From contig CADBVV010000001.1 of assembly GCA_902798205.1 (NCBI GenBank), positions 3,020 to 67,019 of the forward strand: 64,000 nucleotides of DNA, written 5' to 3'. Origin of the DNA: an uncultured Pseudomonadota bacterium. GTDB lineage: Bacteria > Pseudomonadota > Alphaproteobacteria > Rs-D84. Position numbers and translations under genes: made by a program. Below are positions 17,964 through 25,194 of the stretch, one piece after another (the first letter of the stretch is position 1; each line of letters opens with the position of its first letter). The notes below the pieces were generated by a model. It did not search any database. It saw only the letters and a list, made by a program, of their open reading frames with translations, and was not told the DNA's origin.

Positions 17964-18036
17964 CGAAACCCGCAGGCAGACTTATTTCCGGCGCATTGCG
18001 CCTGATTATAAATCTCGCATAGGTTGCGGTTTTCTG
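17964..18036 (-). promoter_or_regulatory. Long hairpin in the rpsL 5' leader
   Basis: Nested stems GAAAACCGCA/UGCGGGUUUC, AGAUUUAU/AUAAGUCU, GGCGC/GCGCC. Confidence 0.5.
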
Positions 18037-18075
18037 TTACTTCTTACTTTCCTTCATTACACGGAAAGCAAGCAT

Positions 18076-18103
18076 ATTATAACCCGACCCCGAAAATTGT
18101 CAA
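18076..18103 (-). promoter_or_regulatory. sigma70 promoter of the str operon
   Basis: TTGACA-N16-TATAAT upstream of rpsL. Confidence 0.7.
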
Positions 18104-18204
18104 GGAAAATATCCGACATTTTTTTGAAAAAACCGCTAAAAATCTATACTTTGACACATTTAACGAATGACAAATAAAAAATAAGTCTAAACAACATAAT
18201 AACA

Positions 18205-18277
18205 CATAAAAAAAAGCCCGTTCAACCGAACGGACCTTTTTATTTGTTTTTGGTTTGGATTAGAAATCGATACCGAA
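18205..18277 (-). repeat. Direct repeat copy 1: duplicate of the OMP gene 3' end and terminator
   Basis: Matches 18494-18565 except for one substitution and the A-run length. Confidence 0.95.
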
Positions 18278-18330
18278 AACAAGTAGATTTTACAAGCGCA
18301 ACGCGCACAGTAAAATCGTTACGGTTTCCG

Positions 18331-18495
18331 CCAGAATGTCAACGGCACAACATGTGCCGTTTGAAAATGACAATTTTCATGGGCGCCAGCCCCAGACACG
18401 CATGGCGAATACGAGAATACACAATTAGAAAAATCATAAAAACGCAGTTTTTTAATACGAGTTTTTATAGATTTTTATTATTGCGTATCAAGGCA
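18331..18495 (-). ncRNA. Structured non-coding element, copy A (unknown family)
   Basis: Reverse complement is homologous to 21429-21591, with compensatory changes in two hairpins. Confidence 0.6.
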
Positions 18496-18565
18496 TAAAA
18501 AAAGCCCGTTCAATCGAACGGACCTTTTTATTTGTTTTTGGTTTGGATTAGAAATCGATACCGAA
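18494..18565 (-). repeat. Direct repeat copy 2: native OMP 3' end (FGIDF*) and intrinsic terminator
   Basis: GGTCCGTTC/GAACGGGCT stem plus T-run; duplicated at 18205-18277. Confidence 0.95.
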
Positions 18566-19405
18566 TTTAACACCACCACCAAAACCTTTTTCAAAGCCCC
18601 AACCTTTTTCAGATCTCAAAGCTTCTTGTTCGCCTTTCCAATGATTCAAAGTACCATTGATGTACAAGCCAACATATTTTGTTGCATCGATGTTAAAGTT
18701 TGCAGCCAATGTTCCGGTCCAAACACCTTCATTTTCCATTTTTCTGCCTTCTATACCACCCATATATTTGTTATCGTTTGTGACACCTGCATATTCAACA
18801 CCTGCAACCATATTGAAGTGAGATGTAAAGATGTATTGTGCATCCAATCCCAATGCCCATGCATGCATACCATGGTTACCCCAGTTGAAAGATTCAGAAT
18901 TCAAATAGTTGTACAATGCATGACCTGCGATTGTCCAAGAATTTGCTACATAACCGCCACGAACACCAGCTGTCCACAAATATTGTGTAGCATCTTTATC
19001 GAACCATTTGCTATCAGAAGTACCATCTAAATGTTGTGCAGGACGGTTCAAATAGAAACCTGCTGCTTCATAAGCTGCAACAAGGTCTGCTTTCCAGCCA
19101 CCCATATCCAATGCACGATATGTTGCACCCAATTTCAAGCCATCCCAATTATATTCTTCAAATCCTCTTTTTTCAGACAAAGATGTTGCAACATCAATTG
19201 CAAAATGGTCTGTTACACCGTAACCAAAATCTTCAGCCAATGCCCATGTACGAACATCTGGGTTAGAATGTGATGACAAAGCTGTTTCACTAACATGATG
19301 ACCAGCTTTTGGCATGTATAATGGGTTACCATCAATTACGTTTGCAGCGTGTGCGCCAGAAACAGCGAATACAGCCAACAATGAAGTCAAAGCGATTTTT
19401 TTCAT
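18548..19405 (-). CDS. Outer-membrane beta-barrel protein
   Basis: Signal peptide (GAHA), alternating beta-strand pattern, C-terminal Phe (VKFGIDF). Confidence 0.8.
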   Translation of the reverse strand: MKKIALTSLLAVFAVSGAHAANVIDGNPLYMPKAGHHVSETALSSHSNPDVRTWALAEDFGYGVTDHFAIDVATSLSEKRGFEEYNWDGLKLGATYRALDMGGWKADLVAAYEAAGFYLNRPAQHLDGTSDSKWFDKDATQYLWTAGVRGGYVANSWTIAGHALYNYLNSESFNWGNHGMHAWALGLDAQYIFTSHFNMVAGVEYAGVTNDNKYMGGIEGRKMENEGVWTGTLAANFNIDATKYVGLYINGTLNHWKGEQEALRSEKGWGFEKGFGGGVKFGIDF

Positions 19406-19571
19406 TTTTTATCCTTTTTCTCGGTTAAACTTAACGTCAGGCTTTCTTTCCTGATAGGATTATTATCGCACTAAAACAAGAAATATTCAAGAAAATAAAT
19501 ATCTTGCCATATATATTTTTTATGATATAATTTGCGTAAGTTTCGTATGTGTTATTACACATGCGATTTTT

Positions 19572-20582
19572 TTATTTATTCAATTCTTTCTTGATTTCGC
19601 GCCAGATTTCGTGGTTTTTTTGGTGTTCGCTGTAATCGCGCGAAAATTTATGACCACCCCGCCCGTCCGCAACAAAGAATAAATATTTTGTGTTTGCCGG
19701 TTTCAAAACACTGCGAATCGCATCACGTCCAACATTAGCAATTGGATGTGGTGGCAACCCGTTATGCGTATATGTATTATAAGGACTGTCTATTTTTAAA
19801 TGTCCCGACAACAATGGCGCACCATGCATATCGCCTTCGAATTTAGTCAAAGGATAAATAACAGTTGGACAAGATTGCAATCGCATATTGATATTCAATC
19901 TGTTCAAATATACACTGGCCACGATCGGCATTTCACGTTTAAGCGGTGTTTCTTTTTGAACAATCGAAGCCAACACCATTACATCGTTCCAATCTTTCAA
20001 TGGCTTCGGATAATCCATATTTTCAAAAGATTTTTGAACATCCAACATTTTCTTTCTGGCCAAATCAAGAACCGCCAAACGTGTTGTTCCGCGTGCGATT
20101 CGATAAGTATCTGGGAAAATATCCCCATCGTGTAAATTACATACTGGCAAATCTTTGTTGCAATCAACATCGCCAGTTAAATACGGGACATTCATCAACA
20201 TATTTTTGATTTGGATAATTGTGTATCCTTCGGGAATTGTAATTGTGGTTGTTGCAACGCGACCGTGTGATAACATAGATGCAATTGTCCATGCCCCCGC
20301 CCCACGTGGCAATTCATATTCACCAGCCATTATTTTCCCACCGTTTAATTTGATTGAAAAATTAAACAAACTTTTAGATTTAATAATATTGTTTTTATAA
20401 AGGTAATTTGTCATACCTGTAACAGATGCACCACGTGGCACAACAACACTTATCGGGTTACGAACCGGCGACCAAATATTAAAAATGAAATAAACAACAA
20501 ACACAACCACACAGGCAATAGCCAGCGCAAATTTGGTCCATTCTTTGATGTTTTTGAATCTTCTTTTTGATATTTTTATCAT
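19572..20582 (-). CDS. mltG: Endolytic transglycosylase MltG (YceG family)
   Basis: N-terminal TM; TIPEG, FPDTY, LASIVQKE, SPYNTY, GLPP.PI. Confidence 0.93.
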   Translation of the reverse strand: MIKISKRRFKNIKEWTKFALAIACVVVFVVYFIFNIWSPVRNPISVVVPRGASVTGMTNYLYKNNIIKSKSLFNFSIKLNGGKIMAGEYELPRGAGAWTIASMLSHGRVATTTITIPEGYTIIQIKNMLMNVPYLTGDVDCNKDLPVCNLHDGDIFPDTYRIARGTTRLAVLDLARKKMLDVQKSFENMDYPKPLKDWNDVMVLASIVQKETPLKREMPIVASVYLNRLNINMRLQSCPTVIYPLTKFEGDMHGAPLLSGHLKIDSPYNTYTHNGLPPHPIANVGRDAIRSVLKPANTKYLFFVADGRGGHKFSRDYSEHQKNHEIWREIKKELNK

Positions 20583-20676
20583 AACCTGAAAGTATAAATA
20601 GTATTTTACATAAAGCAATAAAATATATTTTCTCTTGTTATTTTTTATACTATGTTTAAGAATACTTTCGTTCTTT

Positions 20677-20753
20677 CGGGGTGTAGCGCAGTCTGGTAGC
20701 GTGTTTGTCTGGGGGGCAAAAGGTCACGGGTTCAAATCCCGTCACTCCGACCA
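20677..20753 (+). tRNA. tRNA-Pro(GGG)
   Basis: 77-nt cloverleaf, anticodon loop CTGGGGG, GGTTCAAATCC, encoded CCA. Confidence 0.95.
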
Positions 20754-20760
20754 AAAAATT

Positions 20761-20785
20761 TAAAACCGCCATTTTGGCGGTTTTA
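20761..20785. terminator. Bidirectional terminator
   Basis: AAAACCGCCA-TTT-TGGCGGTTTT between convergent genes. Confidence 0.8.
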
Positions 20786-21328
20786 TTATTTAATCTTTCT
20801 TAATATCTTCAAATCATGTAAAAATTCAATAATCAATACAATCTGCCAAACAAAAAATACAATTGTCACAATATCATCACACATATGATTTTCGATGATA
20901 TCAACTAATGAAAAAATATACCCTTGTTCTGTTGTAACAAAAAGCATTGCTGTTTCCCATGCAAACATTGTGAATCGTTTATCTATAATTGGAATTATTT
21001 TTCCTTTTTCGTCATAAACAATATTACGGACACATTTTGTTTTATATACAAGATGCTTTATCACAAATACAATCACACATATAAATATTTGAACAAGAAT
21101 ATTATACCATATCCATTTTTTTTCAAAAGCACCGTTTGCTATACCGGAAAAATCATAATCATATTTAATCATATCTGGAACAGAATCCCAGTATATATAA
21201 AACATCGCTATTTCTATGGCCAAAACTATAAACGTTACAATTATGGATATTGATGTTCTGAACTTAATTCCACGCAAATTTCTTTTGGACAAAAGCATTT
21301 TTATAAATTGTATAAATGACGCCAGCAT
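20786..21328 (-). CDS. Hypothetical membrane protein (DUF1648-like N-terminus possible)
   Basis: 3-4 hydrophobic segments; WDSVPDMIKYDYDFSG motif; very AT-rich. Confidence 0.65.
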   Translation of the reverse strand: MLASFIQFIKMLLSKRNLRGIKFRTSISIIVTFIVLAIEIAMFYIYWDSVPDMIKYDYDFSGIANGAFEKKWIWYNILVQIFICVIVFVIKHLVYKTKCVRNIVYDEKGKIIPIIDKRFTMFAWETAMLFVTTEQGYIFSLVDIIENHMCDDIVTIVFFVWQIVLIIEFLHDLKILRKIK

Positions 21329-21428
21329 ATTTTCCCCGTTTAATTAAGATATTTTTCATATAATATTTAATAAAGTACAGGAAAACAAGCATATATTTAC
21401 ACAAAAAATGTTTTTATGGTCGGGGCAG

Positions 21429-21591
21429 TGCCTCGATACACAATAAATAAAATAAAAAAAATCTTGTGAACTTCGATTTTTTAATATTTTCTTAATTGTG
21501 CATTCTCGTATTCACCATGCATGTCTTGTGGACTATCGCCCACGAAAACTTCGTTTTCAAACGGTAGATTTCCGTACCGTTGACATTCTGG
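21429..21591 (+). ncRNA. Structured non-coding element, copy B (unknown family)
   Basis: Homologous to the reverse complement of 18331-18495. Confidence 0.6.
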
Positions 21592-21595
21592 TGCA

Positions 21596-21655
21596 TCTTG
21601 TTGCCCCAACCCAAACATAAAATTAAAACCACCACAAAAGTGGTGGTTTAAATTT

Positions 21656-21672
<17 letters not shown>
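21596..21672. terminator. Extended hairpin: tRNA terminator plus an inverted copy of the tRNA 3' end
   Basis: AAACCACCAC/GTGGTGGTTT core; TCTTGTTGCCCC pairs with GGGGCAACAAGA. Confidence 0.75.
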
Positions 21673-21732
<60 letters not shown>

Positions 21733-21741
21733 AAAGCAACC

Positions 21742-22410
21742 CTATTTTACATTTTGTTTTTGATTTTTCAATGCGATTTTTACACCTTCAAACATTTTAC
21801 GTGCATCTTTGTCCATTGGAACAAAAGCGCCCGTACTGTTTGTTTTACCGGTATAAAACCAAACATTATCACGCAATGTTTTATATTCAACCAATTTATA
21901 AAGCGAATTCAATACTGTAAATTCTTTTGGAAAATTGTGTTTTACACCCTTTTCAAAACAATAAATCGTGCGATGAATAAATCTGATTGGACATTTTCTT
22001 TGTATTAACGCAATAATTAAATCGTTTAAAAAACCCTGTTCTTTTTCAATTGATTTACTTTTGCGTGCACTTTTCCACATTTCTTGCATATCAGATAAAA
22101 CAAAAGGTCGTTTATTTATATCTTGGTCCAACATTGAATCAAAATTATAAATTCTGTTTACATAATTATATAATCTTTTGCATTCATCATTTGATTTATC
22201 AAACTTACGTGTTGTTGGTAAACCATCAATAAAAATTGTATATTTGGGTTTTGATTGTCCATATTGAAATAAATCAATTGTCGCCAACAAAGTTTTATCT
22301 GTGGAATAAAGATAAAAAGAATCTTTGTTCGCCACAGAAATTTTTGCACCACCCTGTACCAATGCATTTATTTCGTTTTGTGCAATTGCAACTTTTTCTT
22401 TATCTGACAT
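21742..22410 (-). CDS. Hypothetical protein
   Basis: Long ORF, AAGGAAAGG upstream of the ATG; no family recognised. Confidence 0.7.
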   Translation of the reverse strand: MSDKEKVAIAQNEINALVQGGAKISVANKDSFYLYSTDKTLLATIDLFQYGQSKPKYTIFIDGLPTTRKFDKSNDECKRLYNYVNRIYNFDSMLDQDINKRPFVLSDMQEMWKSARKSKSIEKEQGFLNDLIIALIQRKCPIRFIHRTIYCFEKGVKHNFPKEFTVLNSLYKLVEYKTLRDNVWFYTGKTNSTGAFVPMDKDARKMFEGVKIALKNQKQNVK

Positions 22411-24195: not shown

Positions 24196-25194
24196 TTATG
24201 CGAATAATTCGTCCAACAAATCGTTCATATTATTACGCAAATTATCCTTGTCTGGATTCCAAACCAATGCATGCATTAAAAACTTATTAACATCATCCAT
24301 TGTAACATCAGGCATATTTGCTTTTGTTGTTACATGTTTCCATGCAGTACGCGGATCAATTATATGGAAACGTCCACGTCCCACAAACACCCATTCGCCA
24401 TCTTGGGGTAAATCTTGCAACAATAAAACAGCCCTGTCAGACAACGGCATATCGCCCCACATATCATGATTGAAATCTAAATCTTCCCAACGCATTTTAA
24501 ATATTTTTGTCTTTGGCGCAAAACCGTAAACCAACATTAAAAATGCAGCACGCAAATTAATATCTTTTTCTTTATTTATTACAGACAATAATTTTTTCAA
24601 ACCAGATTTAGTCAATTTTCTTTCACGTCTTACAACTGTGATTTTTTCAATATCATCTGTTGGGTTATCTTTTCTGTACCCCATATCGACGGCATAATTA
24701 AAAATGCTTTGCAACAATTCTTGCATACGCAGTGCCATCGAACGACCCGCAATATTATCCAATGATTTTTGTAAATCTTGTTTCGTTATATTTTGGATAT
24801 TTTTATCAAACAAAGAATCAAAATGTGCATTTATCGCACGTTTCAATTTTGTCATAGAATCTTCACTGCGACGGACCTTGCGTTCAAGATACGATTGCAC
24901 AAAATCTTTGAAAGAAATTTTCTTTCGTCTGTTTGGCACTTTCTTTAATGCTTCACTTAAAACTTCACCAACTTTGGCACGCGCTTCTTCAATGTCTGTT
25001 TCTGGATATTTACCAATAATGATTCGTTTATCACGTCCATTAACACGTTTTCGCACAAAGAAACTTTTCACACCGCGTTGTGTTATATACATACGCAATC
25101 TTGGTTCAGACAAATCTTGGACAACATCAAATCCTGTTTCCGGTGCAGGAAGACTGTCCAGAATATAAGAATTAAAGAAAAATTGATGTGCCAT
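24196..25194 (-). CDS. Tyrosine-integrase homologue (arm-binding and core-binding domains) lacking catalytic motifs
   Basis: N-terminal LRMYITQRGVKSF..R..G..KRIIIGKYP..IEEAR; MRWEDLD, PLS, WVF retained; box I and II residues altered. Confidence 0.8.
   Translation of the reverse strand: MAHQFFFNSYILDSLPAPETGFDVVQDLSEPRLRMYITQRGVKSFFVRKRVNGRDKRIIIGKYPETDIEEARAKVGEVLSEALKKVPNRRKKISFKDFVQSYLERKVRRSEDSMTKLKRAINAHFDSLFDKNIQNITKQDLQKSLDNIAGRSMALRMQELLQSIFNYAVDMGYRKDNPTDDIEKITVVRRERKLTKSGLKKLLSVINKEKDINLRAAFLMLVYGFAPKTKIFKMRWEDLDFNHDMWGDMPLSDRAVLLLQDLPQDGEWVFVGRGRFHIIDPRTAWKHVTTKANMPDVTMDDVNKFLMHALVWNPDKDNLRNNMNDLLDELFA

Follow-up and report, generated by a model that had tools for sequence, protein, structure and literature searches.

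Small, hairpin-rich DNA elements behind tRNA genes of Candidatus Enterousia, bracketed by copies of the tRNA tail

A 64,000-nt stretch of an uncultured alphaproteobacterial genome (contig CADBVV010000001.1, positions 3,020 to 67,019; hereafter the window) holds two similar stretches of DNA, A and B, which lie in inverted orientation about 3 kb apart and raise the question of what they are and how they arrived there. We regard them as probable members of a lineage-specific family of mobile DNA elements that are miniature, non-coding and non-autonomous. The sequence-only reading of the window had already named such an element among its options, and this is now supported by the number of copies, by strong covariation and by insertion seen at filled versus empty sites, with no Rfam match among the results. 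Members of the family carry co-varying hairpins, are inserted, are linked to tRNA tails, form arrays with rare cargo and have no transposase linked to them.

Structure and insertion sites of copies A and B

The full-length match between the reverse complement of 18331–18495 and 21429–21591, as first read from the sequence, was borne out at about 76% identity. Taken on the reverse strand, A aligned end to end with B in BLAST (76% identity across all 163 nt of the query, E 1.7e-24), while a second alignment gave 75.9% identity over 170 columns and a MAFFT alignment including the flanks gave a mean column identity of 78%. The sequence blocks said to be shared are present in both copies, and so are the two compensatory changes, GAAAAT/ATTTTC in A versus GAAAAC/GTTTTC in B and AACGGCAC/GTGCCGTT in A versus AACGGTAC/TACCGTT in B. 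We found that the closing pairs co-vary too (CGCCA/TGGCG in A versus CACCA/TGGTG in B). The proposed multi-way junction with three hairpins reappeared in the consensus fold of 14 long-form copies, where it is enclosed by the closing stem (CGCCA/TGGCG in A) of a module that we call H1; in these copies double changes preserve pairing at 9 of 23 predicted pairs. The folds of A (219 nt, z -7.7) and of B (197 nt including the closing stem, z -8.0) were matched in stability by 0 of 200 shuffles each.

The paired structure described from sequence alone therefore stands, but three features had been missed: a 69-nt target duplication, an extra 53-nt module of A and the link to tRNA 3' ends. Likewise, 18331–18495 does belong to A, the true span of which is longer, namely 18278–18496 (219 nt). 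H1 of copy A makes up the bulk of what had been described. The features of both loci are collected in Table 1.

Table 1. Coordinates of copies A and B, their modules and their targets in the window
Feature	Position	Strand	Basis
Direct repeat 1 of A: duplicated last 18 nt of the porin-like ORF, 3' UTR and terminator	18209..18277	.	99% identical to 18497–18565
Module S1 of A: hairpin, common to 'type 2' elements behind other tRNAs	18278..18330	+	BLAST, fold
Module H1 of A: CGCCA/TGGCG stem round three-hairpin junction	18329..18407	+	14 long forms, consensus fold
A: conserved linker AATACGAG, long AT-rich hairpin H2 and conserved end TCAAGG	18408..18496	+	
Direct repeat 2 of A: in-place 3' end of porin-like gene and terminator	18497..18565	.	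single-occurrence context in relatives examined
Porin-like gene, 285 aa; 3' end and terminator duplicated by insertion of A	18548..19405	-	ORF list
Direct copy of last 12 nt of tRNA-Pro(CGG) at far end of B, 11/12 match	21419..21430	-	census of tRNA-tail repeats
H2, linker and conserved end of B	21431..21512	-	model R1
H1 of B with three-hairpin junction	21513..21593	-	alignment and fold
Inverted copy (complement) of tRNA-Pro(CGG) 3' end	21594..21612	-	inverted repeat I3
Intrinsic terminator between tRNA and B	21620..21655	-	terminator-like hairpin 21626–21649, both strands
tRNA-Pro(CGG)	21656..21732	-	ARAGORN; Rfam tRNA, 64.8 bits

Copy A fills the gap between two 69-nt direct repeats (18209–18277 and 18497–18565), which a repeat search showed to be identical at 68 of 69 positions and both of which hold a terminator-like hairpin. 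The porin-like gene that supplies this duplication matches no Pfam family and has orthologues in 27 of the 30 other genomes of the genus that were searched. The comparison of the locus returned 24 loci, of which those of G000 and seven relatives were inspected; all seven relatives have the porin-like gene with one terminator and no element, i.e., an empty site. The covariance model R1 matched A at 18381–18493 (89.1 bits, E 3e-18). The linker-H2-end part of A is up to 97% identical to copies from other species, and BLAST found matches to positions 166–219 of A in C9, C12 and many relatives. Relative to the terminator of its target, A is oriented opposite to the tRNA-linked copies and, unlike these, has no inverted copy of the target end.

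Copy B, matched by R1 on the minus strand at 21431–21533 (70.8 bits, E 6e-14), lies behind tRNA-Pro(CGG): the terminator comes first, next the tRNA 3' end in inverted form, then the element and finally the tRNA 3' end again as a direct copy. The direct tail repeat sits 228 nt downstream of the tRNA with one mismatch, and the complement of the tail 47 nt downstream with one mismatch in 13. The inverted copy, at about 21596–21612, pairs with 21419–21430 and so closes the element, with a closing stem of 10 bp in the predicted fold, and it also pairs with the 3' end of tRNA-Pro(CGG) across the terminator. In relatives, the same tRNA is followed by another element type (G002) or by none (G046, G010 and G014).

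A patchy family tied to tRNA 3' ends

Candidatus Enterousia comprises gut Alphaproteobacteria with reduced genomes. Model R1 matched 39 of the 61 genomes of the genus, all of them metagenome assemblies, a single genome holding as many as 18 matches; occupancy is patchy, the 22 genomes without the element including nearly closed ones. The expectation that the window genome would hold further copies was fulfilled by full copies at C4:112150, C7:59074 and C7:27226, besides A and B, and by partial ones in C9 and C2. Covariation, which the two original copies had suggested, proved strong when a covariance model was applied to 51 copies: 94% of cells are paired and double compensatory changes occur at 18 of the 29 stem pairs, counts that derive from an alignment fitted to the covariance model itself, and none of 500 shuffles reached the observed pairing. 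In the outer stem of H1, seven of the eight pairs show double changes across the 51 copies. The elements are non-coding, 100–260 nt in size and modular, consisting of an optional S1, H1 (the loop of which may hold the three-hairpin junction), a conserved linker and the long AT-rich H2 ending in TCGAGG. The arms of H2 lie 60–100 nt apart in 81 of 85 copies and, judged by this spacing, none of the 85 holds cargo within H2.

The sequence-only reading could assign no known RNA family, and neither could an Rfam scan, in which only the two tRNAs passed the gathering threshold in the whole window; searches by E-value of 18000–22000 and of 16 element-bearing loci returned weak terminator-like or tRNA-antisense matches only. 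A distant-mode blastn search with copy A found no match in phage and plasmid collections, and neither a 28-nt H2 motif nor a 21-nt S1 motif had an exact match in viral contigs. Full-text literature searches, together with term searches within individual papers, turned up no account of elements of this kind.

The association with tRNA 3' ends is the most informative feature of the family. In the window genome, 12 of 45 tRNAs have their last 12 nt repeated (≤1 mismatch) within 350 nt downstream, versus 0 of 45 upstream. A same-strand tRNA lies within 330 nt upstream of 35 of the 51 model matches, and no row was flagged with an opposite-strand tRNA alone. Among copies from public genomes, 50 of the 74 assessable ones have such a tRNA upstream, and 22 of the remaining 24 read as lying behind a tRNA 3' fragment and a terminator. 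The orientation relative to the tRNA is constant among tRNA-linked copies, and the family uses at least 11 tRNA species as sites. In element-bearing loci, chosen for holding elements, 65 of 140 tRNAs have an exact downstream copy of their last 11 nt.

Insertions of this small, hairpin-rich mobile DNA behind tRNA genes are bracketed by the tRNA's own tail. The direct repeat reaches from the T loop or the acceptor strand to CCA, sometimes including the terminator (11–57 nt), and tRNA sites additionally carry an inverted copy of the tRNA 3' end directly after the terminator. The outer inverted repeats vary by tRNA, each being equal to the tail of its own tRNA. At non-tRNA sites the target duplication measures 24–69 nt, the flanking repeats of the copies other than A being 67, 48 and 24 nt long. 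In the tree, closely related cores fall at different targets, namely tRNA genes for Glu, Gln, Pro, Ser and Arg as well as the porin-like gene and a GC-rich repeat, which supports mobility between targets. A tRNA gene split in the T loop was seen in a single case (G018), which recurs four times in overlapping loci.

The elements also form tandem arrays, occasionally with cargo genes. Intervals between successive tail copies measure 100–299 nt in 76 of 82 cases and 941–1883 nt in four, and all four long intervals terminate in an H2 module. Larger units between tail copies include a 4.7-kb phage-like remnant in G007, an ORF in G002 that by eye looks like a putative acetyltransferase, and ORFs in the window genome and L216 assigned, likewise by eye from their sequence, as a putative GDSL-type hydrolase. 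We infer from these arrays and the rare cargo a resemblance to integration at tRNA ends via a folded hairpin site.

Known systems and the search for an enzyme

Prokaryotic MITEs and related small repeats (RPE, Correia, ERIC and REPIN) are, like the Enterousia elements, small (~100–260 nt), non-coding, AT-rich, multi-copy, intergenic, rich in hairpins and associated with target duplication, and the family shows the size, the copy number (up to 18 matches), the 69-nt duplication and the empty sites of such elements. Yet MITEs have conserved terminal inverted repeats in common with a parent IS, whereas the ends of the Enterousia elements are not fixed but vary by tRNA and match each target; their duplications are 11–69 nt instead of 2–14 nt, they stand near-exclusively behind tRNA genes in one orientation, and no parent IS was found for them. 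A term search of the main text of a 2024 review on prokaryotic MITEs returned no mention of tRNA. P4-type tRNA-integrating islands and their integrase-less derivatives, which are named cis-mobilisable elements, likewise occupy tRNA 3' ends with T loop-to-CCA repeats, accrete and carry cargo, and direct tRNA 3'-end repeats flank the Enterousia inserts as well. Unlike the islands, however, the Enterousia units are 100–300 nt long, have no cognate one-tRNA integrase beside the copies, use at least 11 tRNA species within one family, add an inverted copy of the tRNA tail and also occupy non-tRNA terminators.

Folded single-strand attachment sites are represented by attC and by attP(+) of CTX phage, in which the outer inverted repeats reproduce the core of the integration site; integrons encode the IntI integrase beside the array and have the R'' and R' core sites RYYYAAC and GTTRRRY. 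The Enterousia elements share with these sites the imperfect hairpin, the conserved structure with free loops and the arrays of units ending in the same core, and, as in integron cassette arrays, some units carry one gene and many none. They differ from attC in that the core is a 13–18 nt tRNA tail and the use of single-stranded DNA is putative, and apparently from integrons in having no IntI-type integrase beside the arrays. The bridge (seek) RNAs of IS110/IS1111 and the hairpins and omega RNAs of IS200/IS605 resemble them as structured non-coding parts of ~150–200 nt with target-matched sequence; in contrast, these IS make little or no target duplication, and the target-matching parts lie in internal loops of their RNAs rather than at the ends. 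In turn, retron msr-msd RNA has closing inverted repeats and short stem-loops followed by one long hairpin at a similar size, but it is encoded directly upstream of its own reverse transcriptase (RT), whereas the Enterousia copies have no adjacent RT gene, occur many times per genome at tRNAs and are missing from the RT loci of the genus that were searched.

The enzymes of these systems were sought in the window genome, which is 93% complete. It has no match to Y1_Tnp (PF01797), Y2_Tnp, rve or DDE_Tnp_1, and none to the IS110 DEDD domain (PF01548) at E up to 0.1, where control genomes were positive; hence neither a DEDD gene nor a Y1 HUH transposase or RAYT, as known for IS110 and for PATE/REPIN, was detected, and no transposase of the IS200/IS605, IS91, IS110 or DDE families. 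Its tyrosine recombinases are one Xer-like protein, one of 194 aa beside the AbiP2 reverse transcriptase and one weak integrase-like match, and its serine recombinases are two Hin-type invertases and two large ones; none of these genes is linked to copies. The only phage-type integrase-like gene has no catalytic motifs and, by its sequence, looks catalytically dead. The linked-gene check proposed earlier agreed with a non-autonomous element, as no recombinase recurs beside copies: none was found among the 10 recurrent neighbour ORF clusters sent to Pfam, and the clusters present in several tRNA contexts are ABC transporters, M23 peptidase, glycosyltransferase, deaminase and similar only. The full-length P4-type integrases of relatives were considered and set aside; no element lies within 1.5 kb of them, and theirs are different tRNAs (Asn, Leu-taa and Arg-tct).

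Contigs of four runs were aligned to the region, and no circular or excised form was seen. A contig of run X13 that 'goes back 288' as a circle turned out to be a loop made by the 69-nt repeat in the assembly graph, and in a contig of run X2 that skips 21399–21649 as if the site were empty, the intervening letters are unknown bases. Two runs are of RNA type; their contigs, from which expression is not readable, leave A uncovered and put a low-depth bin over part of B (X20).

Competing explanations and a possible route of movement

The strong covariation and the very stable folds would also be expected of a family of structured small RNA genes linked to tRNA genes, with mobility secondary, in which the RNA would be made with or just after the tRNA, be closed by a stem resembling the acceptor/T-arm minihelix with CCA, and be matured or stabilised by tRNA-processing enzymes. 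The fixed orientation relative to the tRNA agrees with this, as do the closing stem made of the tail complement and the tail itself, the G011 copy that preserves H2 pairing via G-U pairs on the tRNA strand, and the promoter-like matches inside A, although the promoter scan yielded weak matches only, inside A and B. We nevertheless consider it unlikely: G-U and A-C departures number 30 versus 20 over 1420 cells with no clear strand bias, both strands fold alike because the stems are palindromic, a terminator separates tRNA from element, no Rfam family matches, occupancy is patchy, and the 69-nt duplication at the porin-like gene is left unexplained. Still less probable, in our view, is that the elements are scars, i.e., joined attachment-site arms of tRNA-integrating islands or prophages that lost their interiors during genome reduction and are not mobile themselves. 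Integrase-mediated islands do leave direct repeats of tRNA 3' ends and accrete in tandem, larger units lie between tail copies, and many relatives have full-length P4-type integrases. Random deletion, however, would not yield identical, complete, co-varying hairpins at more than 50 places, nor does it agree with the narrow size ranges of H2 and of the units, with one core lineage at many tRNAs and, flanked by fresh duplications, at non-tRNA sites, or with the finding that an integrase adjoins no copy examined.

The least probable explanation, which we hold to be very improbable, is a retroelement whose msr-msd-like RNA is copied by an RT that switches template onto the 3' ends of abundant terminated transcripts, yielding a hybrid cDNA that recombines with the gene. 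It would account for direct repeats that stop exactly at the terminator T run, i.e., the transcript 3' end, and that start in the T loop at tRNAs, for targets that are highly expressed genes (pre-tRNAs and porin mRNA), and for an inverted copy of 13–18 nt, a length like that of a primer-binding site. RTs do occur in 25 of the 61 genomes of the genus, but they are present in 18 of the 39 genomes with the element versus 7 of the 22 without it. The RT was rejected as the driver because its presence does not track the element and no copy adjoins an RT gene: with filters off, R1 reached at best 14.2 bits (E 0.27) at six RT loci and the AbiP2 locus. The sole RT of the window genome is an AbiP2-type defence RT (E 5e-164), the order of sense and antisense tails is unfit for simple tRNA priming, and a pattern of element-free, RT-positive and element-rich, RT-free clades is already partly seen.

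Returning to a non-autonomous mobile element, its mode of movement can be inferred in outline. The elements insert directly downstream of intrinsic terminators, nearly all of which belong to tRNA genes, and each insertion is flanked by sequence that was copied from the target or matches it. The hairpins may act in cis, as sites for a recombinase that is provided in trans. Together, the tRNA tail, the terminator and the complement of the tail could fold into a hairpin that serves as attachment site by mimicking the target tRNA gene's double-stranded 3' end, in the manner of attC sites and of attP(+) of CTX phage; this would explain the unit order tail-terminator-antitail-core-tail. Several observations stand against a mobile element: no mobilising enzyme was found in the window genome, no circular or excised form was seen, copy A departs from the tRNA-linked copies in its orientation and lacks the inverted copy, and the ends match each target instead of forming fixed terminal inverted repeats, a pattern that fits no known cut-and-paste chemistry. 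The target-matched ends could instead be locus-specific frames that persist while the cores are swapped by gene conversion. A more far-reaching proposal, which we regard as doubtful, groups the elements with the small gene-bearing units into an integron-like cassette system that integrates at tRNA 3' ends, is programmable by a copied tail match and is served by an unrecognised recombinase or host function; the stem of each unit's hairpin attachment site would then be a double-stranded copy of its own tRNA's tail, and a nucleic-acid match, either copied or re-templated, would determine the target.

If a mobile family is indeed at work, about one in four to one in three tRNA genes of these very small genomes is followed by a hairpin element, parasitic or domesticated, whose ends imitate the tail of its own tRNA. 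One family at more than 10 tRNA genes with matching ends lies beyond the rule of one integrase for one tRNA and beyond transposases with fixed ends, and discovery of the enzyme could bring to light a new principle of integration-site choice, based on structure mimicry or on templating. The elements would further flag those sites in reduced genomes that are hot spots for the entry of small gene cargo, and their repeats break genome assemblies of Enterousia.

Copies A and B and their relatives

The two inverted copies in the window, A and B, belong to a family of real, structured, lineage-specific, non-autonomous mobile elements set in a frame that mimics the 3' end (tail) of tRNA genes. The family belongs with known kinds, MITEs and integrase-less tRNA-site elements, among which such a frame is unusual. 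Its targeting mechanism is potentially novel, and we found no description of such elements in the portion of the full-text literature covered by our searches.

The reverse complement of 18331–18495 (A) aligns end to end with copy B at ~76% identity (E 1.7e-24), and the likeness, shared blocks and paired substitutions described in the sequence-only reading are all found in the sequence and alignment. Each copy folds much more stably than shuffled sequences (z -7.7 for A and -8.0 for B, with 0/200 shuffles as good in each case). The Rfam scan suggested by that reading returned no family for either copy at gathering or permissive thresholds. The ends it proposed for A hold for the part that aligns with B; the full copy is longer and fills exactly the gap between two 69-nt direct repeats, each made up of the final 18 nt of a porin-like ORF, a short 3' UTR and an intrinsic terminator. 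A search with the porin retrieved 24 loci, eight of which were inspected: the window's genome and relatives G009, G001, G012, G043, G007, G010 and G002. In all seven relatives the porin-like gene is followed by a single terminator and the element is absent, and in four of them (G001, G007, G010, G002) the rpsL promoter and gene come next, as in the window. Since the relatives' site has one terminator and no element, copy A was inserted here, and 69 nt of the target were duplicated in the process.

Copy B is found downstream of tRNA-Pro(CGG). Read in the direction of the tRNA, the order is tRNA, terminator, complement of the tRNA 3' end (12/13 nt), element and a direct copy of the last 12 nt (11/12). 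Just beyond B, between two convergent tRNA-Pro genes, lies a 180-aa ORF with no Pfam family. In G002 this ORF is missing and both tRNA-Pro genes share one terminator; thus, it may be cargo brought by an insertion.

A covariance model built from nine short-form copies detects the type 1 (A/B-kind) core, i.e., hairpin H1, a linker and a long AT-rich hairpin H2, in 39 of the 61 Candidatus Enterousia genomes (as many as 18 matches in one genome), which bears out the earlier guess of more copies elsewhere. No match was obtained in the other 22, several of which are assembled in 2–9 contigs. A DNA search gave matches in 18 of the 24 relatives from this genus; 16 genomes from other families of the order yielded one weak 29-nt match and nothing else. 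An exact 28-nt motif recovers 81 stretches from a species-representative genome collection. Their titles all indicate Alphaproteobacteria or proteobacterium MAGs, in some cases Candidatus Enterousia, and where a title gives the host it is a ruminant, deer, horse or similar animal. The runs containing the window stretch are bovine, sheep and unspecified gut metagenomes where the record gives an organism. PMC12306168 places Candidatus Enterousia in order Rs-D84 and describes reduced genomes.

The structure of the element is under selection. In an alignment of 51 copies (50 distinct), fitted to the covariance model and hence biased toward structure, 94% of cells are paired vs 85.9% in shuffles, and none of 500 shuffles reached any of the measures. 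The pairing-preserving changes seen earlier between A and B extend, in this model-fitted alignment, to double changes in 18 of 29 pairs, a signal lost when the partner is slid by 1–3 columns. The three-hairpin insert inside H1 of A and B is common to other copies, and its outer stems are kept through changes such as GTGCC/GGCAC, ATGTC/GACAT and TGCAC/GTGCA. Departures from pairing (30 G-U vs 20 A-C) do not clearly indicate a strand; therefore, the fold could act at the RNA level, in either DNA strand when single-stranded, or as a palindrome bound by a protein.

Features of the window, its genome (G000) and a relative (G018)
Feature	Position	Remark
Copy A, full extent	18278–18496	219 nt
Direct repeats of copy A	18209–18277 and 18497–18565	68/69 identical
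Porin-like ORF	18548–19405	minus strand
Copy B	21429–21591
180-aa ORF	20786–21328	minus strand
tRNA-Pro(CGG)	21656–21732	minus strand; copy B downstream
332-aa integrase-like protein	24196–25194	minus strand
Other element types	G000 contigs C3, C6, C8, C9, C11–C14	e.g., loci L090–L100
GTTCGTAA ... TTACGAAC module	G000:C4:112066–112115, C4:113227–113276, C3:34160–34209	relatives too
Split tRNA-Ser(GGA)	G018:C19, about 276–430	loci L043 / L154
Island-like stretch	G000:C4:50000–62000	outside the window
Permuted tmRNA gene	G000:C9:10593–10923	ARAGORN

The tRNA-tail frame

The window's genome is 93% complete and comprises 851 kb in 17 contigs. Here the tail (last 12 nt, at most one mismatch) is repeated within 350 nt downstream of 12 of 45 tRNA genes and upstream of none. 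Exact 13-mer repeats accompany 10 tRNA genes, none of these repeats occurring further off, and degenerate ones were recognized by reading at four further tRNAs. The space between tRNA and tail copy is occupied by elements of a few related types, of which types 2 and 3 have different cores in an unchanged frame; the extra 53 nt of A (18278–18330) is a type 2 module. Type 2 (starting AACAAGTAGATTTT...), type 3 and others occupy the same frame behind Ser, Met, Arg, Gly, Val, Leu and Tyr tRNAs. In these other types a T-arm-like GGTTCGA directly precedes the core and the tail copy begins at the T loop.

Among 51 model matches in the fetched loci, 35 have a same-strand tRNA within 330 nt upstream, and no row was flagged with an opposite-strand tRNA alone. 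Public genomes provided 82 copies, 74 of them assessable after setting aside eight too close to the locus end, and 50 of the 74 follow a same-strand tRNA within the same distance. By reading, 22 of the remaining 24 follow a tRNA 3' fragment ending in CCA and a terminator, in arrays or behind islands; the other two lie within a GC-rich palindromic repeat, with flanking duplications of 67 and 24 nt. The tRNAs used are Glu(TTC), Gln(TTG), Gln(CTG), Ser(GGA, CGA, TGA), Tyr, Arg(ACG), His, Pro(TGG) and Pro(CGG). Of the 50 tRNA-linked public copies, 34 show an exact complement to 10 nt or more of the tail in the space from terminator to core, and 29 have an exact tail copy, 9 nt or longer, beyond the core.

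We found that units are repeated behind a single tRNA, each with its own terminator, inverted tail copy (antitail), core and tail. In loci picked for holding elements, 76 of 82 intervals between successive tail copies measure 100–299 nt, two 350–399 nt and four 941–1883 nt, all four of the latter having an H2 module at the end and one or two ORFs inside. Larger or coding inserts include a phage-like remnant of 4.7 kb that tail copies flank in G007 and, by reading of the sequence, putative ORFs for an acetyltransferase (G002) and a GDSL-type hydrolase (window's genome, behind tRNA-Glu).

The GC-rich palindromic repeat family (AACCCTCCCC ... CCCCGCCCCGGGCGGGGAAT) of some Enterousia genomes (loci L032, L052, L176, L177) is an alternative type 1 target. 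A further palindromic module (GTTCGTAA ... TTACGAAC), with arms ~35–50 nt apart and TTTCCAATACTTTCA before it, occurs downstream of tRNA-Glu, Tyr, Pro and Gln loci. In G018, a 75-nt type 3 core sits within the T loop of tRNA-Ser(GGA), between GGTTCGA and ATCCC. The interrupted gene is the only close tRNA-Ser(GGA) copy found in that genome, so it is either dead or requires removal of the insert; no further T-loop-split tRNA gene was found in the DNA searched.

Signs of movement between targets and a proposed mechanism

In a tree of 51 cores, targets are intermixed within clades, one tight clade uniting copies at Glu, Gln, Pro, Ser and Arg tRNAs and in the GC-rich repeat. Copy A clusters with copies at tRNA-Gln(CTG) and in the GC-rich repeat, and B with the copy that its own genome carries at tRNA-Pro(TGG). 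Identity between copies from different species reaches 97%. Behind tRNA-Pro(CGG) with an identical terminator, G002 carries a type 2 element with a 56-nt repeat and G046, G010 and G014 carry none. One copy at a non-tRNA site retains the tRNA-Arg tail and terminator of an earlier site.

The most likely mechanism for integration at tRNA 3' ends, proposed by analogy, would involve a circular, probably single-stranded unit presenting a hairpin that has the terminator as its tip and, as its stem, the 3' end of the tRNA gene copied in double-stranded form. The element would in this respect resemble attC sites and the CTX phage site, which operate via such a hairpin and strand exchange. A single strand exchange with the tRNA gene would leave tail, terminator, antitail, core and tail. 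This expected order is the one observed, and the model would account for arrays whose units each bring their own terminator. On its own, however, the model explains neither the way in which the stem is matched to every new tRNA nor the plain duplications of 24–69 nt at non-tRNA sites. There are two ways out: the ends may be templated from the target, or cores may be exchanged between locus-specific frames.

Candidate mobilising enzymes

The sequence-only reading had looked toward a linked transposase, reverse transcriptase or IS110 gene. No recombinase was present among the 10 recurrent ORF clusters neighbouring the copies that were compared with Pfam, and the IS200/IS605, IS91, IS110, rve and DDE_Tnp_1 families have no match in the window's genome. 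The reverse transcriptase of this genome is an AbiP2-type defence enzyme (E 5e-164), and we rejected such genes as drivers: they occur in 18 of 39 element-bearing vs 7 of 22 element-free genomes, and no copy adjoined the six RT loci and the AbiP2 locus scanned. Full-length P4-type integrases of relatives are located at other tRNAs and their 1.5-kb flanks contain no copy. Phage, plasmid and viral-contig searches found nothing.

The window also encodes a 332-aa P4-type integrase-like protein with arm-binding and core-binding domains. Its catalytic domain is a weak match in which the usual Arg/His-x-x-Arg/Tyr motifs were not found, and 60 of 61 genus genomes carry a gene of this size with this arm-domain match, apparently in synteny. 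Judged from these sequence features, it looks like a domesticated DNA-binding protein. Elsewhere in the genome, an island-like stretch adjoining tRNA-His and tRNA-Ala includes a HipA/HipB pair, an ankyrin-repeat protein of 720 aa, two neighbouring large serine recombinases, and the AbiP2 reverse transcriptase with a tyrosine recombinase of 194 aa after it. The genome also carries a permuted (two-piece) tmRNA gene with the tag AANDNVRLAIAA, as expected in an alphaproteobacterium.
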